A stretch of DNA of 64,000 nt from an uncultured Solirubrobacterales bacterium. GTDB lineage: Bacteria; Actinomycetota; Thermoleophilia; Solirubrobacterales; Solirubrobacteraceae. Of the stretch, positions 35,473 to 52,949 are shown one piece after another. Made by a program: the position numbers and the translations under genes. Within the stretch, counting starts at the first letter, position 1. Each line of letters starts with the position of its first letter. The DNA is taken from NCBI GenBank assembly GCA_963699325.1, contig CAVOTN010000003.1, forward strand, positions 154,600 to 218,599. Direction: 5' to 3'. The notes beneath the pieces were generated by a model. That model was not told the origin of the DNA. It did not search any database and saw nothing but the letters and a program-made list of their open reading frames with translations.

Positions 35473-36149
35473 GGCTCAGGAGGGCGCCCGAGGGGGTCGC
35501 GGCGGAGTTCGCAGATGCTGCCCCGCCCTCCGATCAGACGCCCTGGCGCGAGGCGCGCTGGTGCGCGCTCGACCTCGAGATGACCGGGCTCGATCCGCGA
35601 CGCGAGGAGATCATCGCGGTCGGGGCGGTCCCGATCGACGATGGTCGGGTCGTGCTCGGCGGCGGGATGTACACGTTGGTGCGCACGACCCGGCGATCGC
35701 AGCACGGAGCGGTGCTCGTCCACAAGCTGCGGGTGCCGGACCTTGCTGACGCGCCGCCTCTGGAGGAGGCGATCGATCGGGTCCTCGAGGCGCTCACCGG
35801 GCGGGTGCCCGTGTTCCACACCGCGGCGATCGAGCGCAGCTTCCTCGAGCGGCAGTTCGGGCGCCGGCGGGTGCAGCTGCCGGCGGTCGCCGACACCGAG
35901 GCGCTCGGGCGGGCGTGGCTGCGCCACCGCGACGGCTCCGCGCCCGAGGGCATCTCGCTCGGGCGGCTCGCCGGCGTGCTCGGGCAGCCGGCGGAGACGC
36001 CGCATCACGCGCTCGGCGACGCGCTCACGACCGCGAAGACGTTCATCGCGCTGGCGAGCTTGCTCGACACGGTGGCGCCGCAGACGGTCGGGTCGCTCGT
36101 GGCCGCGAGCCGGGCGCCGGTGGCGGCAAGGCGCTTTGGGGCGGGATGA
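35469..36149 (+). CDS. DEDD 3'-5' exonuclease (DnaQ-like)
   Basis: ALDLEMTGLD ExoI, FHTAAIERSFL, HHALGDA ExoIII; GTGA overlap. Confidence 0.92.
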   Translation: MRLRRAPEGVAAEFADAAPPSDQTPWREARWCALDLEMTGLDPRREEIIAVGAVPIDDGRVVLGGGMYTLVRTTRRSQHGAVLVHKLRVPDLADAPPLEEAIDRVLEALTGRVPVFHTAAIERSFLERQFGRRRVQLPAVADTEALGRAWLRHRDGSAPEGISLGRLAGVLGQPAETPHHALGDALTTAKTFIALASLLDTVAPQTVGSLVAASRAPVAARRFGAG

Positions 36150-37106: not shown

Positions 37107-37457
37107 GTGATCGTCAGCGAGTCGTTCGTGGTCGCGGACTGGAGCGATCCGGGCACGCATCCGGGCCGGCCGATCGCCGGCCTGCATGTTCACCGCTCCG
37201 ACGACGAGGCGTGGATCGTGCTCAGTGGCACGCTCGGGTTCCAGGTGGATGATGAGCAGCGCGAGGTGCCCGCCGGCGAGTCGATCCTCGTCACCCGGGG
37301 CACGCGCCACTCGTTCTGGAACGCGACGTCGGAGCCGGCGCGCTACCTGCTCGTGATGACCCCGCGGATCTATCGCCTGGTGCAGGAGCTCCACTCGGGC
37401 GAGCGCTCGGACTACGCCCAGATCTTCGAAGAGCACGACTCCGAACTGCTCGAGTGA
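37107..37457 (+). CDS. Cupin domain protein
   Basis: LHVHRSDDEAWIVLSG, GTRHSFWN. Confidence 0.9.
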   Translation: MIVSESFVVADWSDPGTHPGRPIAGLHVHRSDDEAWIVLSGTLGFQVDDEQREVPAGESILVTRGTRHSFWNATSEPARYLLVMTPRIYRLVQELHSGERSDYAQIFEEHDSELLE

Positions 37458-37458
37458 C

Positions 37459-38421
37459 GTGACTCATTTCGGCCCCCCGGATGCGACGGTCGCTCCGCGT
37501 TACACCGGCGTGCGCACGTTCGCCCGTCTGCCGAACGTCGAGCTGCCGCGTGACGACGTCGACGCCGCGGTGATCGGCGTGCCATTCGACACCGCGACCA
37601 GCTTCCGGAGCGGGGCGCGGTTCGGGCCCGAGGCGATCCGCGCCGCTTCGATGCTGCTCCGCCCGTATCACCCGGTGCTCGACGTCGACGTGTTCGACAC
37701 GCTGTCGCTGGTCGACGGCGGCGACCTGCAAATCACACCGGGGAACGCGCTCCACACGACCGAGCAGATCGACGAGCAGCTCCGGCCGCTGCTCGCGGCG
37801 GGGATCGTGCCGCTCGTACTCGGCGGCGATCACTCGATCGTCCTCGGCGAGCTCCGCGCCCAGCACGCCGCGCACGGCCCGGTGGCGCTCGTGCTGCTCG
37901 ACGCCCACGCCGACACCTGGGATCAGTACTACGGCGAGCGCTACTTCCACGGGACCCCGTTCCGCCGCGCGGTCGAGGAGGGGCTCATCGACCCGGCGCG
38001 CTCGCTGCTCGCGGGCATGCGCGGCCCGCTGTACGGGCCCGAGGACCTCGACGTCCCGCGCGAGCTCGGGTTCGAGGTCATCCCCGGACCGGACCTGGTG
38101 GCGATGACGCCCGACCAGTACGGCGACCGCGTCCGCGCCCGGATCGGCGACGGGCCGGCGTACCTGTCGTTCGACATCGACGTGCTCGATCCGGCCTCTG
38201 CGCCCGGAACCGGGACGCCCGAGGTCGCGGGCCTCCAACCGCGCGAGGCGCTCGCGCTCCTGCGCGCGCTCGCTGGGATCGCCTTCTCCGGGTTCGACGT
38301 GGTCGAGGTCGCGCCGGCGTACGACTCGCCGGGTCAGATCACCGCGCTCAACGCCGCCGCGGTCGCGTTCGACCTGCTGGCGCTGCTGGCGGTGGCGCGC
38401 AGCCGCGACCGCCGTGCCTAG
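37459..38421 (+). CDS. speB: Agmatinase-like ureohydrolase
   Basis: GARFGPEAIR, GGDHS, DAHADT, HGTPF, SFDIDVLDP, APGTGTPE; exact substrate uncertain. Confidence 0.85.
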   Translation: MTHFGPPDATVAPRYTGVRTFARLPNVELPRDDVDAAVIGVPFDTATSFRSGARFGPEAIRAASMLLRPYHPVLDVDVFDTLSLVDGGDLQITPGNALHTTEQIDEQLRPLLAAGIVPLVLGGDHSIVLGELRAQHAAHGPVALVLLDAHADTWDQYYGERYFHGTPFRRAVEEGLIDPARSLLAGMRGPLYGPEDLDVPRELGFEVIPGPDLVAMTPDQYGDRVRARIGDGPAYLSFDIDVLDPASAPGTGTPEVAGLQPREALALLRALAGIAFSGFDVVEVAPAYDSPGQITALNAAAVAFDLLALLAVARSRDRRA

Positions 38422-38490
38422 GCGTTAGAGACTCGTCGAACCTCAGCCCCAGGGGCTCATGGCAGAGCCGGGTTCGGCCGACGCAACCAT

Positions 38491-40536
38491 GTGATGTCAG
38501 GGAGACGCTCGCCGTTCGTCAGCGACGCCCGGCGCGAGGGCTCGCCGGGGCGGTCGAGGACGCGGCGGGTCGCGCTCTGCGTGCTCGCGCTGCTCATCGC
38601 CTGGGCGATCACCTACGAGCTCGCGTTTACCGTGTTTACCAGCCTGCTCGACGCCGTCCCATTTCACGGGATCGCGCCCGACGTGGTCTTCCTGATCGCC
38701 GCGTCGCTGCTGATCTGGCGGGGCCTCGGCGGCGAACGCGGCTGGATGCTCATCGGGATCGGCGCGGTGTGCTGGGCTTCGGGCGACATCTACTGGACGC
38801 TCGCGCTCGGGAACCTCGCCAATCCACCGGTGCCGTCCCTGGCGGATGCCGGCTACCTGTCGTTCTGCCCGTTCGCGTTCGCGGGGATCCTGGCGCTCGT
38901 GCGACAGCGGATGTCCGGCGTGCCGAAGGCGCTCGCGGCGGACTCGGCCGCGGCCACCCTCGCGGTCGGCGCACTCGGCGCGGCGCTCGTGGTCCAGCCG
39001 GTTGTCGCCCACGCCGACGGCGGAGTCCTCGCAGTCGCCACAAACCTCGCCTACCCGATCTTCGACCTGCTGCTGCTCGGCCTGATCGTCGGCGCGACCG
39101 CGCTCGGCAACTGGCGCCTGAACCGGACGTGGGTGCTGCTCGGCGCGTCGGTGCTCGCGTTCTGGATCGCCGACAGCGTGTACGTCGTCGCCGACGCCAC
39201 CAACACGTACACCCAGAACGACTGGTACAACGCGCTGTGGTACTGGTCGCCGATACTCGCCGCGTCGGCGGGGTGGCTGCCACGCCGCGTGTCGGTGCCC
39301 GCGCCCGGACGGGTCAGCGCGCGCGGGATCGTCATGCCAGTGGCGTTCGCGTCGGTCGCAATCGGCATCCTCGTCTGGTCGAGCTTCGATCGGGTTGGCG
39401 TGATCGCGATCGTCCTGGCCACGGGCTCGCTGTCGGTGGTCATGGGCCGTCTCGTACTGACGTGGCGAGAGAACGCGCGCCTGCTTCGTGCGAGCCAGGG
39501 GGAGGCGCTGGCCGACGCGCTGACCGGCCTCGGGAATCGGCGCGCGCTGCTTGCCGATCTGGAGCGGCGACTTTCGACGACGCGCGACGACGGCTCGCTC
39601 ACGCTCGTGCTGTTCGACCTCGACGGCTTCAAGCAGTACAACGACAACTTCGGGCACCCGTCGGGGGACGCCCTGCTGCGCCGCCTCGGAGCGAAGCTCG
39701 AGTCTCACCTCGGCGCCACCGGTCGTGTGTACCGGATCGGGGGCGATGAGTTCTGCGCTCTGATCGACGCCCCGCCGGGCGCTTCGGACGCTCACGTGCA
39801 GGCCGCGGCGCGAACGTTGTTCGAGCAGGGAGACGGCTTCACGATCGGGTGCTCGCACGGTGCCGTGCTCCTGCCGACCGAAGCGCAGGATGCGAGTGCC
39901 GCGCTCACGATCGCCGACCAGCGGATGTACGCAGACAAGCGGGTCGGCCGGGTGTCCGCGGCGCAGCAGTCAAAGGATGTGCTACTGCGCGCCGTCGCCG
40001 AGCGAAACCGCGAGCTGGGCGCGCACGGGCGCGATGTCGCTGAGTTGGCCGCCGCCGTCGCCGCCGGGTTCTCCCTGCCACCGGACGAGATCGAGATGAT
40101 CCGCCATGCCGCGGAGCTCCACGATGTCGGCAAGGTGGCGGTGCCAGACGCGATCCTGGACAAGCCGGCTGCGCTCGACGAGACCGAGTGGGCCTTCATC
40201 CACGAGCACACGATGATCGGCGAGAAGATAATCGGGGCTGCGCCCGATCTCGCGCGCGTGGCCAAGCTGGTCCGCTCGAGCCACGAGAACTTCGACGGGA
40301 CCGGCTATCCCGATCGGCTCGCACGCCGAGAGATCCCCCTCGGCGCGCGGATCATCGCGGTGTGCGACGCGTTCGATGCGATGACGACCGACCGGCCCTA
40401 CCGCGCGGCGATGGACGAGGAAAGCGCGCTGGCCGAGCTCGTGCGCTGTGCCGGCACCCAGTTCGACCCGGACGTCGTCGAGCGCTTCTGCGCGGCACTG
40501 GCGCCGGAGCGAACAACTCTGCCGCGCGCGGCGTAA
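38491..40536 (+). CDS. Membrane-bound GGDEF + HD-GYP protein
   Basis: Multiple N-terminal TMs; DLDGFK, YRIGGDEF; LHDVGK, HENFDGTGYP, VCDAFDAMT.DRPYR. Confidence 0.94.
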   Translation: MMSGRRSPFVSDARREGSPGRSRTRRVALCVLALLIAWAITYELAFTVFTSLLDAVPFHGIAPDVVFLIAASLLIWRGLGGERGWMLIGIGAVCWASGDIYWTLALGNLANPPVPSLADAGYLSFCPFAFAGILALVRQRMSGVPKALAADSAAATLAVGALGAALVVQPVVAHADGGVLAVATNLAYPIFDLLLLGLIVGATALGNWRLNRTWVLLGASVLAFWIADSVYVVADATNTYTQNDWYNALWYWSPILAASAGWLPRRVSVPAPGRVSARGIVMPVAFASVAIGILVWSSFDRVGVIAIVLATGSLSVVMGRLVLTWRENARLLRASQGEALADALTGLGNRRALLADLERRLSTTRDDGSLTLVLFDLDGFKQYNDNFGHPSGDALLRRLGAKLESHLGATGRVYRIGGDEFCALIDAPPGASDAHVQAAARTLFEQGDGFTIGCSHGAVLLPTEAQDASAALTIADQRMYADKRVGRVSAAQQSKDVLLRAVAERNRELGAHGRDVAELAAAVAAGFSLPPDEIEMIRHAAELHDVGKVAVPDAILDKPAALDETEWAFIHEHTMIGEKIIGAAPDLARVAKLVRSSHENFDGTGYPDRLARREIPLGARIIAVCDAFDAMTTDRPYRAAMDEESALAELVRCAGTQFDPDVVERFCAALAPERTTLPRAA

Positions 40537-40650
40537 CGTGGGGTCGCCGCTGAGCTCGAATCGGCGGTCGCGTGGCGCATAGAGGACCGATCCTGGCCTA
40601 AAACGCGGATACGGTCTCGGACACTGTCAGTGGACCGAAAGGAGCATCTA

Positions 40651-41538
40651 ATGGCCGAGCGAGACCGCTACATCCCGGGCGTGCCGTGCTGGATCGACAC
40701 GAGCCAGCCCGACCCGGAGGCCGCCGTTTCCTTCTATCGCGACCTGTTCGGCTGGGACGTCGAGGACGTTATGCCGCACGGGGCGCAGGGCAGCTACTTC
40801 ATCGCCCGGATCCGAGGCGGAGATGTCGCGGGTATCGGCGGGGTCGCCGAAGGAGCGCCGCCGGTCGCCGGCTGGAACACCTACGTCTGGGTCGACAGCG
40901 CGGACGAGATGGCTCCGAAAGTCAAGGACGCCGGCGGCACCGTGCTCACGGAGCCGTTCGACGTCATGGAGTCCGGCCGTATGGCGATGTTCGCCGATCC
41001 CGAGGGGGCGGCGTTCTGTGTCTGGCAGCCCAACCAGCACCGGGGCGCGCAGGTCGTCAACGAGGCCGGCTCCCTGAACTTCAACAACTTGAACACTCGC
41101 GACGCGGAGCGCGCGAAATCGTTCTACGGCGCGGTCTTCGGGTGGCGGACGATTGCGATGGACGGCGGCGTCGAGGCCTGGACGTTGCCCGGATACGGCG
41201 ATCACCTCGAGCTCCTCAATCCGGGAACGCGCGAGCGAATGGCCGCGATGGGCGCGCCGGCCGGTTTCGAGGACGTGGTGGCGACCCTCACCCCGCTGCC
41301 GGACGACCACGAGGACGTCTCCGCGCACTGGAGCGTGACGTTCGCCACCGACGACGCCGACGCGACCGCGGAGCGGGCCGCCGCCCTGGGCGGGAAGCTG
41401 CTGGCGCCGCCGTTCGACGCCCCCTGGGTCCGGATGACGATCGTCGCCGACCCACAGGGCGCGACGTTCATCGCGAGCCAGTTCGCCCCCGAGAACAGGG
41501 AGGTCCCCGCCCCCGGGAGCGCATCAGTGAGCGCCTAG
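40651..41538 (+). CDS. VOC family (glyoxalase/bleomycin resistance) two-domain protein
   Basis: GVPCWID, FYRDLFGW, GRMAMFADPEGAAF, DPQGATF. Confidence 0.93.
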   Translation: MAERDRYIPGVPCWIDTSQPDPEAAVSFYRDLFGWDVEDVMPHGAQGSYFIARIRGGDVAGIGGVAEGAPPVAGWNTYVWVDSADEMAPKVKDAGGTVLTEPFDVMESGRMAMFADPEGAAFCVWQPNQHRGAQVVNEAGSLNFNNLNTRDAERAKSFYGAVFGWRTIAMDGGVEAWTLPGYGDHLELLNPGTRERMAAMGAPAGFEDVVATLTPLPDDHEDVSAHWSVTFATDDADATAERAAALGGKLLAPPFDAPWVRMTIVADPQGATFIASQFAPENREVPAPGSASVSA

Positions 41539-41543
41539 CCGCC

Positions 41544-42941
41544 TCAGAACAGCTGCAGGTAGCGGTCGAGCTCCCACTGGGTGATCTGCTCGTGCGCGGC
41601 CTGCCACTCGCGGCGCTTGACCTTCGCGAAGTAATCGACGTAATCGCCGTCGCGGGTCTTGCCGAACGCGGCGCGGAGCACATCGTTCTTCTCGAGTTCG
41701 CGGACGGCGTCGAGCAGGTTGGCCGGGAGCAGCTCGATTCCGGCCGCCTCGCGCTCATCGGGATGCATCTCGTACAGGTTGGCCGAGTTCGGCTCGCCGG
41801 CGTCGAGCTCGCGGTCGATGCCGTCGAGTCCGGACGCGAGCATCGCGGTCGCCGCGAGGTATGGGTTGCACGAGCCGTCGACCGTCCGATCCTCGATCCG
41901 GCCGGCGTCAGGAATCCGGAGCATCTGCGTGCGATTGTTGTAGCCGTAGCTCACGTACGCCGGCGCCCAGGTCGCGCCGCTCGTCGGCGCGCCCACGACG
42001 AGGCGCTTGTACGAGTTCACCGTCGGGGCGGTGACCGCGATGTAGGCCTTGGCGTTGGCCTTCAGCCCGCCGATGAACTGGTACGCGAGCTCGGATAGGC
42101 CAAGGCCGCGGGGATCATCCGCAGCGTCGCGCTCGAACACGTTCTCACCGTTCGACCACAGGCTGACGTGGAAATGGCAGCCGTTCCCGGTCAGGTTCGC
42201 GAACGGCTTGGGCATGAACGTGGCGATCAGCCCGCGCTGCTGCGCCAGCGACTCGACCATGTAGCGGTAGAACACAGCCCGGTCGCAGGTCGTCAGCGCG
42301 TCGTCGAACTGGAAGTTCTGCTCGAACTGACCATTCGCGTCCTCATGGTCGGTGGCGTAGTTGTCCCACCCAAGCCCGGTCACGGCCTTTGAGACCTGCG
42401 AGACGAAGTCGAGGTTGCGGGTCAGCGCGCGCATGTCGTAGCAGGGCAGGTCGAGGGTGTCGAGCTTGTCGGCGACCTCGATCCCGCCGTCCTCAGTGCG
42501 GCGGACCAGGAAGTACTCGAGCTCGGCGCCCATCTTCAGCTCGAACCCGAGCTCCTTGGCTCGCGCGAGCTGATTGCGCAGGATCGTGCGCGGACAGAAG
42601 GGCCATGGCTCGCCCTCGACCGTCACGTCGCACGCGAATCGCGCCACGTTCGGCTGCCACGGCAGGATCGTCAGCGTGGTCGGGTCGGGGATCGCGATCA
42701 TGTCCGGATCGTGGGGGCCCTGGCCGATGTCGCCGGCGGCGAACCCGGCGAAGCCCGCGCCGTCGGTGAGCAGGTCGTCGATGTGGTGCGCCGGGACGAG
42801 CTTGGCGCTCGGTTTGCCGTGCATGTCCACGAACTGAGCGAACAGGAACTCGATCTGTCGCTCGCTGATGATTCGCCGGACGTCGTCGGCGTCGCTGACC
42901 TGCGGCGCGGGCTCGATGCGGTGCTCAGTTGAGATAGCCAT
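41544..42941 (-). CDS. gmaS: Type III glutamine synthetase-like enzyme, probable gamma-glutamylmethylamide synthetase (GlnT/GmaS)
   Basis: QFVDMHG, GAGFAGFA, DHEDANGQFEQNF, FMPKPF..LTGNGCH, PTVNSYKR, NRTQMLRIP; linked to mgsABC-like genes. Confidence 0.82.
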   Translation of the reverse strand: MAISTEHRIEPAPQVSDADDVRRIISERQIEFLFAQFVDMHGKPSAKLVPAHHIDDLLTDGAGFAGFAAGDIGQGPHDPDMIAIPDPTTLTILPWQPNVARFACDVTVEGEPWPFCPRTILRNQLARAKELGFELKMGAELEYFLVRRTEDGGIEVADKLDTLDLPCYDMRALTRNLDFVSQVSKAVTGLGWDNYATDHEDANGQFEQNFQFDDALTTCDRAVFYRYMVESLAQQRGLIATFMPKPFANLTGNGCHFHVSLWSNGENVFERDAADDPRGLGLSELAYQFIGGLKANAKAYIAVTAPTVNSYKRLVVGAPTSGATWAPAYVSYGYNNRTQMLRIPDAGRIEDRTVDGSCNPYLAATAMLASGLDGIDRELDAGEPNSANLYEMHPDEREAAGIELLPANLLDAVRELEKNDVLRAAFGKTRDGDYVDYFAKVKRREWQAAHEQITQWELDRYLQLF

Positions 42942-43008
42942 GTGCGAGGTATATCCCGACCGAAGGGCATCCGGCAATGGCCGCAGGCACCGGGTATCGG
43001 GGGCTAGG

Positions 43009-43025
43009 ATGTGCTCTTCGCACAT
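43009..43025. promoter_or_regulatory. Palindrome, candidate operator of the GAF-PucR regulator
   Basis: ATGTGC-tcttc-GCACAT; second TCGCACAT half-site at 42940-42947 (minus strand). Confidence 0.5.
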
Positions 43026-43038
43026 AGGAGGCCAATCT

Positions 43039-44814
43039 CTGTCGACAACCTCTGAGGCCCGCGGGCTTCACGAAGAGAACCGCACCCTTTACCGGGTGAT
43101 CAACCTCGTCGGCTCGTCGATCGAGCTCGGCCCGATGCTGCAGGGGATCGTCGACCTCGCCACCGAGGCGACCGGTTGCCACGCGTGCTTCATCTACCTG
43201 GTCGAGGGCGGGGTGCTCACGATCCGGGCCGCCTCGCCGGTGTATGCCGGGGCGGTCGGTGTCGTACAGATGCGGCTCGACGAGGGGCTGACCGGATGGG
43301 TCGCCAGGCACCGCCAGCCCGAGTTCATCCGCGACAACGCGATGGCCGACCCGCGGATGAAGTTCATTCCTGTGCTCGAGGAGGAGCGCTTCCAGTCGAT
43401 GGTGGCTGTCCCGATTCTCTCCCGCGCGGGTGAGACGATCGGCGTGATCGTGCTCCACACCGAGGCGCCGCGCGAGTTCACCGAGGACACGCTCAAACTG
43501 CTCGTCCACATCGCGTCCCTGGTGTCGGGCGCGATCGAGAACGCGCAGCTGTACGACCAGCAGCGCCGCCGGGTCGACGCGCTGACGAGCCTGTCCGGAC
43601 TCGCGCAGGAGGTCGCGACCGCGGGCGACGCCGCGGAGATCGGGCGCGCGGTCACGCTCGGGATGCGGCGGCTGCTCGGGGCCGAGGTGTGCCAGCTCTA
43701 CCGGTTGGACCGCGACGGCAGCGGCCTCCAGCTCCTGTTCTCCTCGCCGGAGACGACGGCGGAGCTCGAGGCCCTGTCGGCGACGGCGCTACTCCTGGCG
43801 GCGTTTGACGCGAGCGCGTCGCGACCGCCGGCGCGAACGTTGTGGCCTGGCCTCGATGTCGCCGATCTGCTGATGACCCCGCTCGTGTCGGGTGGCGAGC
43901 GGCTCGGGCTGCTGTGCGCCGGCGCGCCGCCACGACGGCCGTTCACCGGCGAGGACACGGAGATGGCGCGCGCAATCGCGCATCTGGCGGCGATCGCGAT
44001 CAAGCGGGCGGAGCTGATCGAGGGGCTGACCAATGCGAACACGGTCAAGGACCTGTTCGAGGCGCTCGCCGCGGGCGCGACGACGTTTGCGGCCACGAAG
44101 GCGGGGGAGGTTCGTTGCGACCTGTCGCGGCCGTACGTGATGCTGTGCGCCGAGCCGGCCGCCGGCCGTGAGCAGGGCTCGGGCGAGTGGCGGGCCGCGG
44201 CCGAGGTGCTCGGCAGGGATCTGTCCGAGCTCGCGCCGCGCGCCGCGGTCGAGGCCGGTCCGGGCCCGGTGCGGGCGGTGCTGTCGTTGGGCACCCGCGG
44301 TCCACAACGGATCGAAGAGGTGGTACGGGGGTGCCGCGAGCTCGGCCGGCGTCGCGGCGCCGCGATCGGGCTGAGTGAGCTCCACGAGTCCGCGGCCGAC
44401 TCGGCGCGCGCCTATCGCCAGGCCCTCGACGCGACGATGATCGGGCGCGCGTTGCTCGGCGACGGCGGCGCGATCGGGTATGCCGAGGTGGGCGCGTACC
44501 GGTACCTCGTGCACATCGGCGCCGAGAACGCCCCGCACGATCGCATGCGGGCCGCCGTCGACCGCCTGATCGCGTACGACGCGCGGCGGCGCACATCGCT
44601 GCTCGACACGCTCGAGCGTTATCTGGCCGAGCGGCGGAGCGTGATCGAGTCAGCGCGCGAGCTGTTCATCCACCCGAACACGCTGCGCCAGCGCCTCGGG
44701 CGGATCGAGGAGCTGACCGGCCTGCACCTCGACGAGGACGACCTGCTGTCGCTCGAGCTGGCGATCAAGCTGGCGCGGCTGCACGGCCGTCCGGGGGCAG
44801 CGCGCCTCGGATAG
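43039..44814 (+). CDS. GAF-GAF-PucR/CdaR family transcriptional regulator; CTG 43039 (or ATG 43009) start
   Basis: Two GAF regions; LLDTLERYL, ARELFIHPNTLRQRLGRIEELTG PucR HTH. Confidence 0.92.
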   Translation: MSTTSEARGLHEENRTLYRVINLVGSSIELGPMLQGIVDLATEATGCHACFIYLVEGGVLTIRAASPVYAGAVGVVQMRLDEGLTGWVARHRQPEFIRDNAMADPRMKFIPVLEEERFQSMVAVPILSRAGETIGVIVLHTEAPREFTEDTLKLLVHIASLVSGAIENAQLYDQQRRRVDALTSLSGLAQEVATAGDAAEIGRAVTLGMRRLLGAEVCQLYRLDRDGSGLQLLFSSPETTAELEALSATALLLAAFDASASRPPARTLWPGLDVADLLMTPLVSGGERLGLLCAGAPPRRPFTGEDTEMARAIAHLAAIAIKRAELIEGLTNANTVKDLFEALAAGATTFAATKAGEVRCDLSRPYVMLCAEPAAGREQGSGEWRAAAEVLGRDLSELAPRAAVEAGPGPVRAVLSLGTRGPQRIEEVVRGCRELGRRRGAAIGLSELHESAADSARAYRQALDATMIGRALLGDGGAIGYAEVGAYRYLVHIGAENAPHDRMRAAVDRLIAYDARRRTSLLDTLERYLAERRSVIESARELFIHPNTLRQRLGRIEELTGLHLDEDDLLSLELAIKLARLHGRPGAARLG

Positions 44815-44823
44815 CGCAGCCTC

Positions 44824-45327
44824 TTACTCCTCGTCGAACACCAGGAACACGGCGATCTTCGCCCTGTTCGCCTTGCGGCGGACCCGTTGCGGCTCCTGTG
44901 ACCAGACGAAGTCGGCGACGAACCGGTTGCGGTCGGGGTCGGCGGCCATCACGATCGCGTCGCAGCCCGCGAACTTGGCCTCGTCGATGATCCGCTTGGT
45001 CGACTTGCGCGTGCCCACGACGTGCCCGTCGGCATCGATGCCCTTGCGCTCGAGGCGCTTGACCGCCTTGTCCACGATCGAGCGCTGCTCGGCCCACTCG
45101 GCCTTGGTCGGGAGCAGGCCCGGGCTTTGCATCCCGAACGCGACGCCGTGAATGCGGGCGATCGTGAACACCCGGACGCTGGCATCCGAGGGTTTGGCGA
45201 GCTCAACCACGCGCGCGATCGCGGCGTCGGAGAACGGCCGGCCCTCGGACGCGAGCAGGATCCGCTCGAACGGCCCCTCGGACGGGCTTCCGGGCTCCTG
45301 TTTTGTCAGCCTGGCCGTCGCACTCAC
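44824..45327 (-). CDS. Universal stress protein
   Basis: FERILLASEG, DAIVMAAD; GTGA overlap with permease. Confidence 0.78.
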   Translation of the reverse strand: MSATARLTKQEPGSPSEGPFERILLASEGRPFSDAAIARVVELAKPSDASVRVFTIARIHGVAFGMQSPGLLPTKAEWAEQRSIVDKAVKRLERKGIDADGHVVGTRKSTKRIIDEAKFAGCDAIVMAADPDRNRFVADFVWSQEPQRVRRKANRAKIAVFLVFDEE

Positions 45328-46886
45328 GGGTCGGACGCGCCCGCGATCGGGGCAGGCGTACCCGCCGCGACCATCTGCTCGGCCGGCGCCGGTCGCTTGT
45401 CCTCGACTCGCTTGCGGTAGGCGTAGAAGAGCAGGTAGGACAGCAGCACGGCCCAGCCGATGAAGTAGTACGGCAGCGTCTTGCGCCCGGCGGCGTTACA
45501 CGTGCAGTTCGCGTACACGGGGCCGCCGTAGAAGTAGATGACCGCGTACACCGCCGCGATCACCAGCGCGACGTACTTCATCCACTCCGGCAGCTTGAAC
45601 GGCCGGCGCACGTTCGGGCGGTGCTTGCGGAGCAGGAAGTAGCCGATCAGCACCGGGATGAACGAGGCGAGGTAGCCGACGTTCGAGAACGTGTAGATCT
45701 CGACCGCGCCGCCCATGAACACGACCGCGATCGAGCAGGCGACGTTGAACCACATCGCGCGGTTCGGTACGCCGTGCTGGTTGACCCGCTGGAAGAAGCG
45801 CGGGAACTGACCGTCGGTCGACATCTGGTGCAGCGACCGGGCGGTGCCGGTGATCGCGTTCAGCGCCGACAGGATCAGCGCCAGGATCAGCATGATCGCG
45901 ATCAACCACTCGAGGATGCTGCTGCCGGTCCCCGTCCCGAACACGGCTGCGGCGTAGTGGACGAAGATCGTCTTGGGGTCGACGAGCGCCGCGTTCCCGA
46001 GCGCGGGGAGACCGAGCACGATGATGAACGCCACCGGGATCATCGTGTAGATGAACAGGCCATAGAGGCCCTCGAGGTTCATCGCGATCTTGGCATCGCG
46101 GTCGGGGTTGCGGGTCTCGCCGATGTAGCACGCGGCGGCCTCCATCGCGATCACGTTCCACGTCAACAGGAACGAGAACGCGAGGTACAAAGTGAGCCAT
46201 CCGTGCCCGAACAGCGGCGTGAAGAAGCCGCTGCCGTTGACGTGGCGGAAGTGCCACAACCAGTCGAAGTTGACCGCTGAGGGATTGAAGATCCACGAGA
46301 TCGCCAGGAACGTCAGCGGGATCATCGAAAGCAGCGCCAGTGTGGTCGCGAACACCGTCCCGAACCGGAGCCCCCTCACCGCCGGAATCGCAAGCAGCAG
46401 CAGCCCGCCGATCGAGATCCCAAGCGTCCACCAGGCGATCGGCGTGTGGATCGGGGTGAAGCCAGCCGTCGAGAGCTTGAAGCGGTCGACGATGTAGAAC
46501 GAGGCCAGGATCATGTTAAGCGGCGCAACCGGGAACCAGCCGAGCCAGTACGCCCAGGCCGTGAACCCGTTCACGTGCTCGGCGAACCGGGGCCATCTGT
46601 CCTTGTAAGCCGGGTACGCGTAGGACGGCAGGCCGCCGGAGCGGTCGGGCATCATTGCCGACAGCTCAGCGAGCAGCAGGCACACGATGTACCCGCTGAT
46701 CGTGATCACCACGATCACGGGAACGGACGCGGCACCGAGCTCGGTGACCATCACCGGCGCGATCCCGGTGACCAGGATCGTGCCCGCGAGGCCGATTACG
46801 AACGCGCCCCACCAGTTCGTCGTCTTCGGCAACCCGGCAGACTCGTATACGAGTTCGTCGTGTCCCGCTGATGAACCGTCCGCCAT
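45324..46886 (-). CDS. APC family amino acid/amine permease
   Basis: About 12 TMs; AELSAMMP.RSGG, YIGET.NP, RPFKLP. Confidence 0.93.
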   Translation of the reverse strand: MADGSSAGHDELVYESAGLPKTTNWWGAFVIGLAGTILVTGIAPVMVTELGAASVPVIVVITISGYIVCLLLAELSAMMPDRSGGLPSYAYPAYKDRWPRFAEHVNGFTAWAYWLGWFPVAPLNMILASFYIVDRFKLSTAGFTPIHTPIAWWTLGISIGGLLLLAIPAVRGLRFGTVFATTLALLSMIPLTFLAISWIFNPSAVNFDWLWHFRHVNGSGFFTPLFGHGWLTLYLAFSFLLTWNVIAMEAAACYIGETRNPDRDAKIAMNLEGLYGLFIYTMIPVAFIIVLGLPALGNAALVDPKTIFVHYAAAVFGTGTGSSILEWLIAIMLILALILSALNAITGTARSLHQMSTDGQFPRFFQRVNQHGVPNRAMWFNVACSIAVVFMGGAVEIYTFSNVGYLASFIPVLIGYFLLRKHRPNVRRPFKLPEWMKYVALVIAAVYAVIYFYGGPVYANCTCNAAGRKTLPYYFIGWAVLLSYLLFYAYRKRVEDKRPAPAEQMVAAGTPAPIAGASDP

Positions 46887-46983
46887 GTGTCCTCCAAAAC
46901 GCGGTTGTACTTACCCGCGGCTAGGCTCCCACGTGGCCGGTGCACGTCCCAGGCGAGATGCGCACACAATTGCGGGTCCCCAC

Positions 46984-48813
46984 ATGGAGCACTTGGACAC
47001 ATTCCTGGCCCGCCACCCTCCGTTCGACGCGCTCGATCCTGACGAGCTCCGCGACCTTGCCGCGGGCGCCCAGGAGCACGCGTACGACACCGGGGAGGCG
47101 GTGCTCGTCGAGGACGGTTTGCCCACGCCCGGGCTGTGGGTGATCGTCACCGGGTCGATGGACATCGTGCACGACGGGGAGCCGATCCAGGTGCTCGAGC
47201 CGGGCGAGTGCTTCGGCCACCCGTCGCTGCTCACCGGTATGGCACCCGCGTTCACCGTGCGTGCGCGCGAGCCTTCGACGTGCGCGCTGTTCGGCGCCGA
47301 GGCGGGGCGGCGAATCCTCGGGACGGAGGCGGGCGCGGCGTACGTCGCGAACTCGATGCGAAAGCGGCTCACGATCGCCGGTCACACGGTGCACGGGCTG
47401 CCGGACGTTGGCACCACGCCGGTGGCGCTGGTTATGAGCCGGGCGGAGTTCTGCGAGCCCGACGAGCCGTTGCGCGCGGCCGTGACACGGCTCGGGCGGG
47501 ACGGGGTCTCGGCGCTGCTGGTCCAGCTCGACGACGGCGCCTTGGGGATCCTGTCCGACGCCTCGATCCGCGCGGCGGTCGCGGTCGACGGCGTCCCGCT
47601 CGACGCGCCGGCGCGCGCGGCAGTCCTGACTCCGGTCGCGACCGTCCCGCCGACCCAGCTCGCGATCGAGGCGACCGTCGAGATGCTCGCGGCCGGGTCA
47701 GAGCACCTGGCGGTGCTCGACGGTGATCGGATCTGCGGCCTGCTGTCCGCCACGGACCTACTCGGCCTCGATACACGCAGCCCGATCGCGCTTCGCCACA
47801 TGCTCCTCGGCGCTCCCGACGAGGACACGCTGGTGCGCGCCGCGGGCGAGATTCCGAAGCTGTTCCTGCTGCTCTCCCGGGCTGGCGTGCTCCCGCGCGA
47901 CCTCGGCCGGGTCCTCAGCCTCCAGCACGACACCGTCGTCGCCCGGCTGATCGACTTCTCGATCTGGAGCCGCGGACCCGCCCCGGTCCCGTGGGCGTGG
48001 CTCGACTTAGGGAGCGCGGCCCGGCGGGAGTTCACGCTTGCCTCGGACCAGGACAACGCCCTCGCTTATGCGTCGGTGGAGCCGGACGCGGTCGAGGCGG
48101 TCGACGGGTACTTCGCGCTGCTCGGCACCGATGTCAACGACGGCCTCGTCAGGTGCGGGATCGGGATCGACAACAACGGCGTGCTCGCCGGCAACCGCCA
48201 GTGGCGGATGTCCAAGGACGCATGGCTGCGGACTTTCGATAGCTGCCTGAACGAGCCCGACGAGTCGCACCTGATCCGGGCCACCGTGTCGTTCGACTTT
48301 CGCCCGACCGCCGGCGGCCTGGCTGTCGCCGCCGAGCTGACCGCGCGGATCCGCGCCGCCCGCCACCACGCGCAGTTCATGCGGCTGATGGCGCGGACCG
48401 CGACCGGCTACCCGGTGGCGCTCGGGTTCCGCGGCCAGCTCGCCACCGGACACGACGGCGATCCCCCCGGGAAGCTCGACCTGAAGCGCGGCGCGATCAT
48501 CCCGCTGGTCAACCTGGTGCGGTTCCACGCGCTGGCGGCCGGCGTGACGATCTCGCCCACGCTCGACCGGATCGAAGCGGTCGCCAGCGTCGGCGAGCTC
48601 GACCGCGCGACGGCGGACGCGCTGCGCGAGGCGTTCGTGGTGATCAACAGCATTCGCTTCGAGCACCATGCGGCCCAGGTTCACGCGGGCGAGACGCCCG
48701 ACAACCTGGTCGATCCCGAGGAGCTCGCGCCGATCGCGCGCACCGACCTGCGCGAGGCGCTCAACGTGGTGCGGCGGGCCCAGAAGCGTATCGGCGCGTG
48801 GTCGCCGCCGTAA
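46984..48813 (+). CDS. cNMP-binding/CBS/DUF294 nucleotidyltransferase (GlnE/GlnD-like fold), intact catalytic motif
   Basis: HPPFDAL, GECFGHPSLL; CBS pair; LGSAARREFTLASDQDNAL; SFDFR; DLKRG. Confidence 0.93.
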   Translation: MEHLDTFLARHPPFDALDPDELRDLAAGAQEHAYDTGEAVLVEDGLPTPGLWVIVTGSMDIVHDGEPIQVLEPGECFGHPSLLTGMAPAFTVRAREPSTCALFGAEAGRRILGTEAGAAYVANSMRKRLTIAGHTVHGLPDVGTTPVALVMSRAEFCEPDEPLRAAVTRLGRDGVSALLVQLDDGALGILSDASIRAAVAVDGVPLDAPARAAVLTPVATVPPTQLAIEATVEMLAAGSEHLAVLDGDRICGLLSATDLLGLDTRSPIALRHMLLGAPDEDTLVRAAGEIPKLFLLLSRAGVLPRDLGRVLSLQHDTVVARLIDFSIWSRGPAPVPWAWLDLGSAARREFTLASDQDNALAYASVEPDAVEAVDGYFALLGTDVNDGLVRCGIGIDNNGVLAGNRQWRMSKDAWLRTFDSCLNEPDESHLIRATVSFDFRPTAGGLAVAAELTARIRAARHHAQFMRLMARTATGYPVALGFRGQLATGHDGDPPGKLDLKRGAIIPLVNLVRFHALAAGVTISPTLDRIEAVASVGELDRATADALREAFVVINSIRFEHHAAQVHAGETPDNLVDPEELAPIARTDLREALNVVRRAQKRIGAWSPP

Positions 48814-48949
48814 CGCGGCGTGTGTGGTCAGACCGCGTCGGGCGCTAAGAACGCGTGAAGAAGTAGAGCCCGCAACCACATTCGCACCTGAAACTGTGCG
48901 CGTGAGCGCCATTGGACCGGTCATCCGCAGGGTCTAGCCTCACCGCGAC

Positions 48950-49861
48950 GTGTGTGGGATAGCAGGTCTTTACACGAAGTCGGCCACGCTTCGTGAGCAC
49001 CTCGGCACGCATCTCGCGAGCATGCTCGAGCAGCTCTCGGACCGGGGTCCTGACAGCGCCGGCGTCGCGTTCTACCGCGATCCGGCGCCGGCTGGGTGGT
49101 GCAAGGTGTCACTGCACTCGCCCTCGCCCACGCCCGATTGGGAGGCGCTGACCGCCGAGCTCGAGGTCGAGTTCGGCGAGGCCTCGCCACCGCGGGTGCG
49201 GGCGACGCACGCCGTGTTCGTGATCGCCGCCGAGGCCGACGAGGCGCAGGCCTGGCTGATCGAGTGTCACCCCGAGCTGACCTTGATGAGCGCCGGGCGC
49301 TCGATCGAGATCTACAAGGAGGCAGGCCCGCCGGGACGGTTCGTCGAGCGCTTCGGACTGACCGAGATCACCGGCAGCCACGCCCTGGGCCACACCCGGA
49401 TGGCGACCGAGAGCCGCGTGACCACCGAGCACTCCCATCCGTTCTCGACCGGGCTCGACCTGTGCCTCGTCCACAACGGCTCGCTGTCCAACCACAACCG
49501 GCTGCGGCGGTCCTTGGCCCGCGAAGGGATCCGGTTCAGGACCGACTGCGACAGCGAAGTCGCCGCCGGCTACCTGACCTGGCGGCTGCGGGAGGGGGCG
49601 TCTCTGGAGGAGGCGCTCGAGGGTTGTCTCGACGACCTCGACGGCTTCTACACGTTCGCGGTCGGGACCGCCGACGGCTTCGCCGTGCTGCGCGATCCGA
49701 TCGCGTGCAAGCCCGCGGTGATGGCGGAGACCGATGAATGGGTGGCGATGGCGTCCGAGTACCGGGCGATCGCGGTGCTGCCGGGGGCGGAGGACGCGGT
49801 CCTATGGGAGCCCGCGCCGGGCCACGTCTATAGCTGGGGCACCGCTTCGTTGGTGGCGTGA
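48950..49861 (+). CDS. mgsA: Class II glutamine amidotransferase, N-methylglutamate synthase subunit A-like (GlxB)
   Basis: MCGIAG N-terminal Cys, RGPDSAG, GHTRMATES, HPF, HNGSLSN, DSE. Confidence 0.88.
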   Translation: MCGIAGLYTKSATLREHLGTHLASMLEQLSDRGPDSAGVAFYRDPAPAGWCKVSLHSPSPTPDWEALTAELEVEFGEASPPRVRATHAVFVIAAEADEAQAWLIECHPELTLMSAGRSIEIYKEAGPPGRFVERFGLTEITGSHALGHTRMATESRVTTEHSHPFSTGLDLCLVHNGSLSNHNRLRRSLAREGIRFRTDCDSEVAAGYLTWRLREGASLEEALEGCLDDLDGFYTFAVGTADGFAVLRDPIACKPAVMAETDEWVAMASEYRAIAVLPGAEDAVLWEPAPGHVYSWGTASLVA

Positions 49862-50580
49862 TGGCCGAGGTGGGGGTGCAAGTCACGCGGGAGGCGTTGT
49901 GGTCGTTCGACCTCGCCGAGCAGACGGTCCGCGAGCTGAACGCGCAGTTGCATGAGGCAACCTCTTCTGACGGCGGCCGGGTGGTCGTGCTCAACCCCGG
50001 CGGGCGCCACGCGATCGCAGTCGGGCTCGACGCCCCCTACGAGGTCGAGATCGAAGGTCACGTCGGCTACTACTGCGCCGGCATGAACAAGCTCGCGAGC
50101 GTGCGCGTACGCGGGAACTGCGGCGTCGGCGTGGCCGAGAACATGATGTCCGGAGTCGTGGTTGTCGAGGGGAGCGCCTCGCAGTCCGCGGGCGCGACCG
50201 CCCGTGGTGGCTTGTTGGTGATCCACGGCGACGCGTCCGCGCGATGCGGGATCTCGCTGAAGGGCGCCGACATCGTCGTGCGCGGGTCGGTCGGGCACAT
50301 GAGCGCGTTCATGGCCCAGCGAGGAAGCCTGGTGGTGTGCGGCGACGCCGGCGAGTCGCTCGGGGACTCGTTGTACGAGGCGCGGCTGTACGTGCGCGGG
50401 TCGGTGGCGGCGCTCGGCGCGGACTGCGTCGAGAAGGAGATGCGCTCCGAGCACGTGACCCAGGTGCGCGAGTTGCTGGCGCGCGCGGAGATCGACGATG
50501 TGGACCCGGCCGAGTTCCGGCGCTACGGCTCGGCCCGGCGGCTGTACAACTTCCATGTCGACAACCTGGGCAGCTACTGA
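49858..50580 (+). CDS. mgsB: GXGXG (GltB/FwdC-like) protein, N-methylglutamate synthase subunit B-like (GlxC)
   Basis: GHVGYYCAGMN, GVAENMMSG, RCGISLKG, GHMSAFMAQ.G, GDSLYE. Confidence 0.88.
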   Translation: MMAEVGVQVTREALWSFDLAEQTVRELNAQLHEATSSDGGRVVVLNPGGRHAIAVGLDAPYEVEIEGHVGYYCAGMNKLASVRVRGNCGVGVAENMMSGVVVVEGSASQSAGATARGGLLVIHGDASARCGISLKGADIVVRGSVGHMSAFMAQRGSLVVCGDAGESLGDSLYEARLYVRGSVAALGADCVEKEMRSEHVTQVRELLARAEIDDVDPAEFRRYGSARRLYNFHVDNLGSY

Positions 50581-51924
50581 TGGCTGCGTCCGCGGACTCG
50601 AACGGCTGGCATCCCGGGTTGCGCGAGTCGGCGACGTTCGACCGCGGAGTGATCGCCGAGATTCAGCGGGCCGCCCGCGAGGGCATGTACGACATCCGCG
50701 GGTTCGGGGCCAAGCGAGCGGTGCCGCACTTCGACGACCTGCTGTTCCTGGGCGCCTCCGTGTCCCGGTATCCGCTCGAGGGCTATCGCGAGCGGTGCGG
50801 AACCGACGTCGTGATCGGCACGCGGTACGCGCGCGAGCCCGTGCGCCTCGACATCCCGATCACGATCGCCGGCATGAGCTTCGGGGCGCTGTCGGGGGCG
50901 GCCAAGGAGGCGCTCGGCCGGGGGGCCACTGCGGTGGGAACGTCGACGACGACCGGCGACGGTGGCATGACCGCCGAGGAGCGCGAGCACTCTTCCGTGT
51001 TGGTGTACCAGTTGCTGCCCTCGCGGTACGGGATGAACCCAGACGATTTGCGGCGCGCGGACGCGATCGAGGTCGTGATCGGGCAGGGGGCCAAGCCGGG
51101 TGGCGGCGGGATGCTGCTCGGCCACAAGATCTCCGACCGGGTGGCGGAGATGCGCGACCTTCCGCCCGGGATCGACCAGCGCAGCGCCTGCCGGCATCCG
51201 GACTGGACGGGCCCCGACGACCTCGAGATCAAGATCGAGGAGCTGCGCGAGATCACCGACTGGCGGATCCCGATCTACGTCAAGGTCGGTGCCTCCCGCA
51301 CCTACTTCGACGTGGCGCTGGCGGTCAAGGCCGGCGCCGACGCGATCGTGCTCGACGGCATGCAGGGCGGCACGGCCGCGACCCAGGACGTGTTCATCGA
51401 GCACGTCAGGCATCCCGATCCTGGCCGCGATCCCGCAGGCGGTCGAGTCGCTGATGGAGCTCGACATGCACCGCAAGGTCCAGCTGATCGTGTCCGGCGG
51501 AATCCGCACGGGTGCGGACGTCGCCAAGGCTCTGGCCCTCGGAGCAGACGCGGTGTCGATCGGGGTGGCGGCCCTGATCGCGCTCGGGGACAACGCCCCG
51601 GGCTTCGATGCCGACTACCGGGAGATCGGATCGGCCGCGGGCTACTACGACGACTATCAGGCGGGCCTCGACCCCGCCGGCATCTCGACCCAGGATCCCG
51701 CCTTGGCGTCTCGGCTGGATCCGGTCGAGGGGGGACGCCGGCTGGCGAACTATCTGAGGACGCTGACTTTGGAGGCTCAGACGCTGGCGCGAGCGTGCGG
51801 GAAGTCGCACCTGCACAACCTCGAGCCCGAGGACCTGGTGGCGCTGACGATCGAGGCGGCGGCGATGGCGCGGGTGCCGCTGGCGGGGACGAGCTGGATT
51901 CCGGGGCTCGTCGCCTCGCCCTGA
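50580..51924 (+). CDS. mgsC: FMN-binding glutamate synthase family protein, N-methylglutamate synthase subunit C-like (GlxD); +1 frameshift at ~51408
   Basis: YPLEGYRE, IAGMSFGALS, TTGDGGM, GQGAKPGGGG, SACRHPDW, DGMQGGT; removing A51408 restores EHVGIP..VSGGIR. Confidence 0.88.
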
Positions 51925-51959
51925 GGGTGGCGCGGTCGCTCGCCACCGGGCCCCGTATC

Positions 51960-52064
51960 CCGAGTTTCGCCGCACTCGCCCATCCGCCGGCGGTGAATTC
52001 GGATCCACTCGGCTATGCACCGAGTTTCTCCGCACTCGAGCCGGGCACGGCGCCGAGTGCGGAG
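51960..52064. repeat. REP-like direct and inverted repeats
   Basis: ccgagtttc(g/t)ccgcactcg at 51960 and 52020; inverted cgagtgcggag 52054-52064. Confidence 0.65.
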
Positions 52065-52100
52065 TTAGTCGGGATCCGGCTCGGCTGGCACCATGGTCGG

Positions 52101-52949
52101 GTGGATGTCGACGACCTCTACGGTCTGCCGCTCGACCAGTTCGTTCCCGAGCGCACCGCGCTCGCCCGCGAATTGCGCAAGGCCGGAGAGCGTGAGCGCG
52201 CGGCCGAGGTCGCCGCGCTGCGCAGGCCTTCGGTGGCCGCCTGGGCCGTGAACCAGCTGGTGCGGACGCAGCACAGCGCGGTCGGGGAGTTGTTCGAGGC
52301 GGGGGACGGGTTGCGCGTGGCGCAGGACGACGTGCTGGCCGGCCGAGGCGACGCGCGGTCGCTGCGCGCCGGCGTCGAGCGGGAGCGCTCGGCGGTCGAT
52401 GCGCTGACCGACGCTGCTCGCGGGCTGCTCAGCTCCGAGGGCCAAGAGCTGAGCGACGCGATGCTCGGGCGGGTCGCCGACACGCTACACGCCGCCGCAT
52501 TCGATGACGAGGCGCGCGATCAGGTCCGTGAGGGCCGCCTCGAGCGCGAGTTGCGCCACGTCGGCCTCGGGACGGCCGCCTTCGCGGGCGGCGGGTCGAC
52601 AACGCCGGCGCCTGCTCGGCCGGCGGGGAAGAAATCGAGCGCGGGTGGGAAACAGTCGACGGACGGTGGCAAGGAGCCCTCCACCGGCCGCGCCGAACGA
52701 GCTGAGCGGGAGCGCGCCGAACGCGAACGGGCGCAGGCCCGGGCGGACGCGCGCGCCACCGAACGCGAGGCTCGCCGGCGCACCGAGCGCGCGGGGCGCA
52801 GCGCCAAGCTGGCACTCGAGCGCCGGGACAAGGCCGCCGAGGCTCTGCGCGAGGCGCAGGACGGCCTCGAGGCGGCCGAGGCGGAGGTCCGCGCTGCCGA
52901 GGACGCCCTCCGCGATGCTGAGGCGGCGGTTCGCGAGACCAGCCGCTAG
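52101..52949 (+). CDS. Hypothetical protein with C-terminal coiled coil
   Basis: VDDLYGLPLDQFVPERTALA, RRPSVAAWAVNQL, TLHAAAFD, GRLEREL; charged helical tail. Confidence 0.8.
   Translation: MDVDDLYGLPLDQFVPERTALARELRKAGERERAAEVAALRRPSVAAWAVNQLVRTQHSAVGELFEAGDGLRVAQDDVLAGRGDARSLRAGVERERSAVDALTDAARGLLSSEGQELSDAMLGRVADTLHAAAFDDEARDQVREGRLERELRHVGLGTAAFAGGGSTTPAPARPAGKKSSAGGKQSTDGGKEPSTGRAERAERERAERERAQARADARATEREARRRTERAGRSAKLALERRDKAAEALREAQDGLEAAEAEVRAAEDALRDAEAAVRETSR

Follow-up and report, generated by a model that had tools for sequence, protein, structure and literature searches.

The 64-kb window analysed here, a stretch of 64,000 nucleotides from contig CAVOTN010000003.1 of an uncultured Solirubrobacterales bacterium, carries at positions 41544–51924 an eight-gene locus that probably encodes the uptake, activation, and transfer half of the N-methylglutamate (NMG) pathway of a soil Solirubrobacterales, with monomethylamine as the predicted substrate. 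The enzymology is that of the established NMG pathway; the cluster is split, and the control block placed inside it has not been described before. Methylamine occurs widely as a nitrogen compound and gives rise to climate-active gases, and the glutamate-linked pathway of its use has been studied almost only in Proteobacteria. The genome is a metagenome-assembled genome (MAG) of 26 contigs and 5.7 Mb with 92.7% completeness. As the window has a G+C content of 70%, genes were called from the codon-position GC content and confirmed against Pfam and NCBIfam, and the gene starts were refined by phylogenetic footprinting, i.e., by alignment of orthologous intergenic regions. The cluster genes showed a third-codon-position G+C content (GC3) of 0.89–0.93. 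All eight genes reported by the first-pass annotation of this DNA were recovered by GC3 and by the Pfam and NCBIfam profiles: gmaS on the minus strand, a divergent pucR, a convergent pair of universal stress protein (USP) and APC permease genes, a DUF294 gene divergent from the permease, and mgsABC. An identical order of nine gene pieces, from gmaS to mgsC, was observed in 30 species-level genomes, so the gene arrangement is not due to chance.

The gmaS gene (41544–42941, minus strand) encodes a ligase of the type III glutamine synthetase (GS-III) kind, with 465 aa from the ATG at 42941, a start set by footprinting; its open reading frame (ORF) extends to 43025. The ligase passed TIGR03105 (‘type III glutamate--ammonia ligase’) with 614.3 bits against a cut-off of 469.6, and stayed below the NCBIfam cut-offs for GlnA (333 vs. 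429) and gamma-glutamylputrescine synthetase (296 vs. 650). The nearest PDB structures were 9qur, ‘glutamate--methylamine ligase’ (438 bits), and 7cql, Rhodovulum GmaS (430 bits), both at about 45–52% identity; the best true glutamine synthetase among the PDB matches reached 277 bits. Residue roles for the active-site mapping were taken from the structure paper of the Rhodovulum enzyme, RhGmaS (PMC7948447). The catalytic Asp177, Glu186, and Arg312 of RhGmaS were kept in the ligase, and in total the equivalents of K30', Y147, D177, E179, E186, N188, R312, and R317 were retained. Asp50' of the glutamine synthetase ammonium site was replaced by Ala and the Glu of the Glu-flap by Trp, as in GmaS (PMC7948447). 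The methylamine pocket (K30', Y147, Q175, D177, E179, E186, and N188) was kept at six of its seven positions. By its scores and this mapping, the ligase belongs to the GmaS family and has an active site of the GmaS type, with methylamine as the predicted substrate.

At the other end of the locus, three adjacent polypeptides gave by Pfam the architecture expected of MgsABC, namely a class-II glutamine amidotransferase (GATase), a GXGXG domain, and an FMN glutamate-synthase domain. The mgsA gene (48950–49861, plus strand; 303 aa, GTG start) encodes a class-II (Ntn) glutamine-amidotransferase-like subunit with GATase_6 and GATase_7 matches. Its N-terminus, MCGI, is of the Ntn-amidotransferase type with N-terminal Cys, and its product is 65–90% identical in relatives. 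The GXGXG-domain subunit MgsB (49858–50580, plus strand; 240 aa; PF01493) was FwdC-like by NCBIfam, a database with no model recognising MgsA, MgsB, or MgsC. The mgsC gene (50580–51924, plus strand; 1345 nt) encodes the FMN glutamate-synthase-domain subunit and contains a frame change, which is weighed below. The mgsABC-like genes had been called coupled at first pass, which is correct because the gene junctions of the cluster overlap by 1–4 nt.

No mgd or sox genes lie within the 64-kb window, in agreement with the first-pass annotation, which had reported mgdABCD to be absent from it. A genome search for the mgd/sox and folate one-carbon genes led to a 17-kb contig (C9). Its minus strand carries soxD-like, soxA-like, soxG-like, and soxB-like genes, fhs (formate-tetrahydrofolate ligase), an FTCD_C gene, and genes for a formate dehydrogenase (FDH) alpha subunit and a NuoF-like protein. 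The soxD, soxA, and soxB-like products scored 75 bits, 726 bits, and 470 bits, respectively, and soxG was found in two pieces in two frames. The soxA-like product has a folate-binding GCV_T part, the FTCD_C gene is of the methenyl-tetrahydrofolate cyclohydrolase type (FchA-like), and the FDH alpha subunit is that of a molybdopterin formate dehydrogenase. A divergent LysR gene stands alongside the sox and fhs genes. An in-frame stop was also observed in the FDH alpha gene (C9:4123-4453) within the motif SCNRT-*-HAPSV, at the position of the selenocysteine (Sec) or Cys molybdenum ligand, and this stop may be a Sec codon.

The link between the two contigs was examined in a sample of 151 genomes drawn evenly across the order Solirubrobacterales. 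A gmaS orthologue was present in 28 genomes and a soxB-like orthologue in 33, among them all 28; five genomes had the soxB-like orthologue without gmaS, and 118 had neither. Ten genera were involved, and Fisher's test gave 1e-25, a p-value that overstates independence because the genomes are related. In many genomes, gmaS and the soxB-like gene were on one contig 4–12 kb apart, or in one operon. These compact loci have two shapes, mgsABC-soxDAGB-fhs divergent from gmaS, or soxDAGB-fhs divergent from gmaS-mgsABC. Read from its genes, the compact form holds the whole N-methylglutamate pathway in one contiguous stretch, leaving through folate and formate. Because the pathway exits through folate and formate genes, the amine is expected to carry a one-carbon substituent, i.e., to be methylamine. 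The first-pass reading of the locus as an NMG cluster is thus backed by the GmaS active site, the adjacent Mgs-type enzyme, and the mgd-like genes found on C9, which co-occur with gmaS in the order.

A second, separate methylated-amine island was observed at C10:16682-33493. It contains a SoxB/MTOX-like flavoprotein, a distant GS-like ligase, an MgsABC-like trio, and a USP and APC pair. The GS-like ligase scored 332 bits with TIGR03105, which is under the cut-off, and the GS-like/Mgs-like module is 32–56% identical to the window genes. The island also carries a trimethylamine N-oxide (TMAO) demethylase-like gene (Tdm-like; 672 + 439 bits), broken by frameshifts, and a two-component flavin monooxygenase composed of a flavin reductase and an ACAD-like oxygenase. 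This second island indicates that the organism deals with methylated amines.

The block PucR-USP-APC-DUF294 between gmaS and mgsABC was complete in 30 species and partly visible in a dozen more cut by contig ends. In the 151-genome sample it was confined to the window's own family, while other families carry the compact cluster; the control block is therefore a conserved, lineage-specific insertion. In the insert-type lineage, the mgd-fhs module lies 16–90 kb or further from gmaS. The source labels of the 80 best related loci were all MAGs of Solirubrobacterales, Solirubrobacteraceae, or Thermoleophilaceae, mostly from soil surveys. The first-pass annotation had pictured a soil actinomycete; the soil origin holds, and ‘actinomycete’ applies only if taken broadly, for any member of the phylum, as the organism belongs to the Solirubrobacterales of the Thermoleophilia.

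Inside the block, the APC-superfamily permease (45324–46886, minus strand; 520 aa; Pfam AA_permease_2) and the USP (44824–45327, minus strand; 167 aa; Pfam Usp) are translationally coupled through a GTGA overlap, and the USP is kept downstream of the permease in relatives. In compact clusters, an Amt-family transporter adjoins pucR. Ammonium and methylammonium are the known substrates of Amt transporters. The Amt orthologue was found in 18 compact loci and in 0 insert-type loci, and a tblastn search with the compact-cluster Amt (E 1e-10) gave no Amt-family homologue in this 92.7%-complete genome. The APC permease, in turn, occurred only in cluster types without Amt. Because Amt and APC are mutually exclusive, the APC and USP pair is a positional replacement for the methylammonium carrier. 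It is probably also a functional replacement of Amt, with methylammonium as the predicted cargo. The mutual exclusivity lends indirect support to the importer role that the first-pass annotation had given to the permease; the best NCBIfam match was a full-length one of 174 bits to the Methylocella TMAO permease NF053774, far below the cut-off.

The regulator gene pucR (43039–44814, plus strand) encodes a GAF-GAF-GGDEF_2-PucR(HTH_30) protein of 591 aa, within an ORF that begins at 42868. Pfam detected two N-terminal GAF domains, GGDEF_2 (31.4 bits), and HTH_30 (64.9 bits); with its C-terminal PucR helix-turn-helix behind a GGDEF_2-like domain, the protein belongs to the PucR family. Translation appears to start at the CTG at 43039, and a Shine–Dalgarno AGGAGG stands 7 nt upstream at 43026–43031. 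Both elements are conserved in close relatives, and the start codon is ATG in loci L012 and L013. The first GAF domain is most like that of PtsP (56 bits, NCBIfam). The PtsP GAF domain senses glutamine and 2-oxoglutarate, which gives a weak hint that the regulator may read nitrogen status. Homologues of the regulator, 42–52% identical, adjoin the compact NMG clusters.

A 17-bp palindrome, ATGTGCtcttcGCACAT (ATGTGC-N5-GCACAT), was identified at 43009–43025 as the candidate PucR operator. It is centred some 76 bp ahead of the gmaS start and is immediately followed by the pucR ribosome-binding site. The footprint of 46 gmaS-pucR intergenic regions from 46 species showed invariant arms and a free spacer. 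One exact copy and seven copies with one mismatch were found in the 5.7-Mb genome; the further copies in the window were two 2-mismatch matches, both within coding sequence and at chance level. In the 21-kb loci of relatives, the palindrome occurs roughly once per locus and never away from the 5' end of gmaS or pucR; about 55 loci have it upstream of gmaS, and three have it in the pucR–amt intergenic region. The palindrome was absent from the loci without a PucR homologue (L059, L060, L063, L064, L069, and L079). As it accompanies pucR and is missing where PucR is missing, the palindrome is proposed as the PucR operator; it is most likely a site of the autoregulated-activator type, with PucR as its putative binder. 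An RNA hairpin of the pucR leader was rejected, as the arms are invariant without covariation and compact loci carry the motif far from pucR. The transcriptional control suggested at first pass has thereby gained a conserved candidate operator.

Conserved blocks in the same 46 intergenic regions outline a putative gmaS promoter (42948–42980, minus strand), with a −35-like CCATTG at 42975–42980 and a −10-like GATATACC at 42948–42955. The −10-like box ends 6 nt upstream of the gmaS ATG, from which we infer that the gmaS mRNA is leaderless, as is typical for actinobacterial leaderless mRNA. The conserved region upstream of mgsA (48876–48949, plus strand), footprinted from 33 orthologous regions, contains CCACATT (48876–48882), AAACTGTGC (48891–48899), GCCATTGG (48908–48915), and TCTAGCC (48933–48939). 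The GCCATTG box of the gmaS promoter recurs here together with half-site-like CACAT and TGTGC repeats; these repeats and the common box suggest that mgsA is co-regulated with gmaS. A GlnR box upstream of mgsA was dropped as its GAAAC-like element was not conserved. In the APC–DUF294 intergenic region (46887–46983), conserved blocks TCCCAGGCGnGAT..ACACAATTG were also visible 10 nt before the DUF294 ATG; they point to an additional regulatory site of another kind and to a DUF294 mRNA with a short leader or none. The sigma-70 consensus scan of 41000–52500 gave no promoter-like sites, with terminator-like matches at background level, and the Rfam scan of 33000–54500 (E up to 0.1) gave no match. 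The proposed promoters come from footprinting alone.

The most interesting feature of the locus is the DUF294 enzyme. Its gene (46984–48813, plus strand; 609 aa, ATG 46984) encodes by Pfam a cNMP domain, a CBS pair, DUF294, and DUF294_C. The N-terminus MEHLDTFL is conserved, and the G-S...D-Q-D nucleotidyltransferase motif of the Pol-beta type, LGSAARREFTLASDQDNA, is kept. The AlphaFold2 model (pLDDT 78) was built from a 22-sequence alignment, which is shallow because the homologues listed were only close orthologues with at least 73% identity. Among PDB folds, the model was matched best by the N-terminal GlnE domain of E. coli, 1v4a (E 4e-6, TMt 0.58), and it also matched 3k7d, the GlnE adenylylation domain (TMt 0.46). 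The search against PDB sequences gave matches limited to the cNMP and CBS domains and none to the catalytic part. By sequence the protein falls outside the GlnE/GlnD family, with no NCBIfam match and with DUF294/DUF294_C as its Pfam assignment. The model suggests that the enzyme may work like GlnE without being a GlnE. DUF294 orthologues (48–71% identical) were present in 6/6 gmaS-positive genomes of the family and in 0/123 gmaS-negative genomes, and they lie within 11 kb of gmaS where the contig allows. The association of a GlnE-fold enzyme with a GS-family ligase leads to the hypothesis of GmaS modification. By analogy, the enzyme most likely nucleotidylylates a pathway protein, for which the GlnE/GS pair makes GmaS the obvious candidate. 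We consider it rather unlikely that the whole of the following scheme holds: a GlnE analogue, gated by a cyclic and an adenine nucleotide, that reversibly nucleotidylylates GmaS (or MgsABC) and so switches methylamine assimilation. For the post-translational layer of control, which had also been suggested at first pass, the evidence consists of the GlnE-like fold and the strict DUF294 synteny only. The literature search on DUF294 function gave nothing usable.

Taken in order, the proposed pathway would run as follows. Methylammonium would enter through the APC permease, and the co-translated USP may modulate the permease. GmaS would join methylamine to glutamate with ATP to give gamma-glutamylmethylamide, which MgsABC would convert to N-methylglutamate. 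The MgdABCD-type dehydrogenase encoded on C9 would then hand the methyl group to tetrahydrofolate. Fhs, the FchA-like cyclohydrolase, and formate dehydrogenase would oxidise the methyl group, so that nitrogen is freed and reducing power is gained. In the Thermoleophilia relatives examined (families f3 and f4 and the Thermoleophilaceae MAGs), the genes stand together in a compact cluster with Amt and GAF-GAF-PucR. The cluster of the window's family would have been split, with the control block (PucR, APC and USP in place of Amt, and the GlnE-fold DUF294) placed between gmaS and mgsABC. PucR bound at ATGTGC-N5-GCACAT would switch on the leaderless gmaS promoter and also regulate its own gene, a direction of regulation that we infer. 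DUF294, gated by its cyclic-nucleotide and CBS sensor domains, would nucleotidylylate a pathway protein, with GmaS as the candidate.

The Proteobacterial NMG clusters (gmaS-mgsABC-mgdABCD of Methylocella silvestris, Methyloversatilis universalis, Methylobacterium extorquens, and Ruegeria pomeroyi) have the same enzyme set and reaction order. They share with the present system the GmaS active site, the three-subunit Mgs, and the folate-linked four-subunit Mgd-type enzyme of the sarcosine-oxidase family. The present system differs in its host (Actinomycetota, Thermoleophilia), in the mgd order D-A-G-B followed by fhs, and, in the window's family, in a split cluster with mgd-fhs elsewhere in the genome. 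It further differs in the APC permease, USP, and DUF294 nucleotidyltransferase embedded in the window's cluster. The regulator of the Ruegeria NMG genes is the AraC-type TmaR (PMC13390433), the only dedicated one found described in the literature, in contrast with the GAF-GAF-PucR observed here. The literature search also gave no paper linking gmaS or the NMG pathway to Thermoleophilia, or gmaS to PucR, USP, or DUF294 partners.

Nearer to the window, the compact NMG clusters of Thermoleophilaceae and other Solirubrobacterales (e.g., L074 and L059) have orthologous gmaS, mgsABC, and mgd genes with 67–90% identity. In many of them the palindrome likewise precedes gmaS, and a GAF-GAF-PucR homologue is present at the 42–52% identity given above. 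In these clusters, however, gmaS directly faces or precedes mgsABC-mgdBCDA-fhs, the transporter is Amt, and there is neither an APC/USP pair nor a catalytically intact DUF294 gene. The amt1-glnT(msmeg_6260)-msmeg_6261..6263 set of M. smegmatis, which is induced by nitrogen starvation through GlnR (PMC4222082), is likewise an actinobacterial group of GS-III, GATase, and glutamate-synthase-like genes beside a transporter, with a link to nitrogen. That set differs by its GlnR control and its Amt transporter, and it lacks PucR, USP, and DUF294 genes. The GlnE/GS pair is resembled in that the DUF294 catalytic region is predicted in the GlnE nucleotidyltransferase-plus-helical-domain fold and is encoded beside a GS-family ligase. 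Unlike GlnE, DUF294 has one catalytic domain instead of two, carries N-terminal cNMP and CBS sensor domains, and has no evident PII dependence.

Several findings weigh against the methylamine pathway and its control as set out here. RhGmaS Q175 is replaced by Ala in the ligase and in 80/80 relatives with the motif, a change that may make room in the pocket for another small amine. The permease, at 174 bits, is far from the 690-bit cut-off of NF053774 and so outside that family. None of the C9 sox-like subunits reaches the curated cut-off for sarcosine oxidase, and a model specific to Mgd does not exist. No repeat of the palindrome (≤2 mismatches) stands before the APC, DUF294, or mgsA genes, nothing ties DUF294 to one particular target, and both mgsC and the soxG-like gene are frameshifted. 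The Ala at the Q175 position in the whole clade and the resemblance of the permease to a TMAO permease would both fit the same chemistry acting on another small primary amine (ethylamine) or on a dimethylamine/TMAO breakdown product, with methylamine not being physiological. The Tdm-like gene and the second GS-like/Mgs-like module of the genome point the same way, and characterised GmaS enzymes also take ethylamine, in theanine synthesis. Such a substrate is nevertheless improbable. The strict co-occurrence and linkage with a GCV_T-bearing enzyme of the sarcosine-oxidase family, fhs, FTCD_C, and FDH fits one-carbon removal, whereas the loss of an ethyl or any larger substituent would yield an aldehyde, with no need for the folate genes. 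Compact relatives, moreover, pair the cluster with Amt, an ammonium/methylammonium transporter. It is very unlikely that the locus serves an alternative ammonium assimilation by a GlnT ‘type III glutamine synthetase’ with GOGAT-like GlxBCD, as such genes were first annotated, since the ligase lacks Asp50' and the Glu-flap Glu and has the GmaS replacements, and its partners are always Mgd-like and folate genes. The NCBIfam family name ‘type III glutamate--ammonia ligase’ speaks for that role, and so does the induction of amt1-glnT-msmeg_6261 of M. smegmatis by nitrogen starvation via GlnR (PMC4222082); such an induction is, however, also expected when methylamine is the nitrogen source. Methylamine remains the more probable substrate.

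The frameshifts have to be weighed separately, as the pathway would be broken here if those of mgsC and the soxG-like gene were real. An extra A (‘gtcAggc’; GAGCACGTC-A-GGCATCCC) causes a +1 frame change at 51408 and splits the Glu_synthase profile into positions 53–255 in one frame and 248–312 in the next. The insertion is outside any homopolymer, and the extra A was missing from 62/62 aligned relatives, which are intact there. Together with the frameshifts of the soxG-like and FchA-like genes, which make three pathway genes affected, this would fit a pathway decaying in this genome through very recent pseudogenes. We regard such decay as unlikely. The GC3 signal switches frame at 51408, and the two halves of mgsC keep a GC3 near 0.9 and are 82–95% identical to relatives at the protein level, with no sign of drift. 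Frame switches whose junction has no stop codon were sought with a phase-aware Viterbi scan, which located the mgsC site to the base and detected 441 stop-less switches in the whole genome, i.e., 9.2 per 100 kb of coding sequence. The corresponding values for the relatives' loci were 1.9 per 100 kb in short-read MAGs and 5.9 in long-read MAGs. The rate of this genome is about five times that of the short-read loci, and the assembly seems rich in single-base indels. The soxG-like, FchA-like, and Tdm-like genes are broken by the same kind of switch as mgsC. Because the genome is rich in stop-less frame switches and both halves of mgsC are conserved without drift, the mgsC frame change is probably an assembly indel error. 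As single-base indel errors seem frequent, the apparent pseudogenes of this assembly are untrustworthy.

Upstream of the locus, the window carries a catalytically degenerate cNMP-CBS-DUF294 paralogue (33781–35472, plus strand; Pfam) and, adjoining it, an intact DEDD 3'-5' exonuclease gene (35472–36149, plus strand), identified by profile match. The two (33781–36149) are an instance of the widespread pair of cNMP-CBS-DUF294 protein and DEDD exonuclease. The paralogue is 31% identical to the cluster DUF294 and has SIARGA in place of SDQDNA. The cluster copy differs from the exonuclease-paired one in having no exonuclease partner and in keeping the catalytic motif, which is missing from the paired copy. 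Almost every insert-type relative has the pair 1–7 kb beyond gmaS; in this genus, insertions between the exonuclease pair and gmaS have brought in genes for a cupin, an agmatinase, a GGDEF-HD-GYP protein, and a KbpA-like glyoxalase (37107–41538). Directly downstream of mgsC, an ORF of 293 aa (52068–52949) showed strong GC3 and had no Pfam or NCBIfam match. It is kept at this position only in the closest relatives L011, L012, L014, and L015, with 69–76% identity.

The locus suggests methylamine use by abundant, mostly uncultured soil Solirubrobacterales. It offers two handles on this metabolism, a PucR-type regulator with a 17-bp candidate operator and an APC/USP pair as the likely Amt-replacing importer of methylammonium. 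The strict association of a GlnE-fold DUF294 enzyme with a GS-family ligase also provides a specific hypothesis on what this family does. If nucleotidylylation of GmaS (or MgsABC) were true, the large and so far uncharacterised DUF294 family would have a first substrate, and a GS-like amine ligase other than glutamine synthetase would for the first time be known to be under post-translational control.

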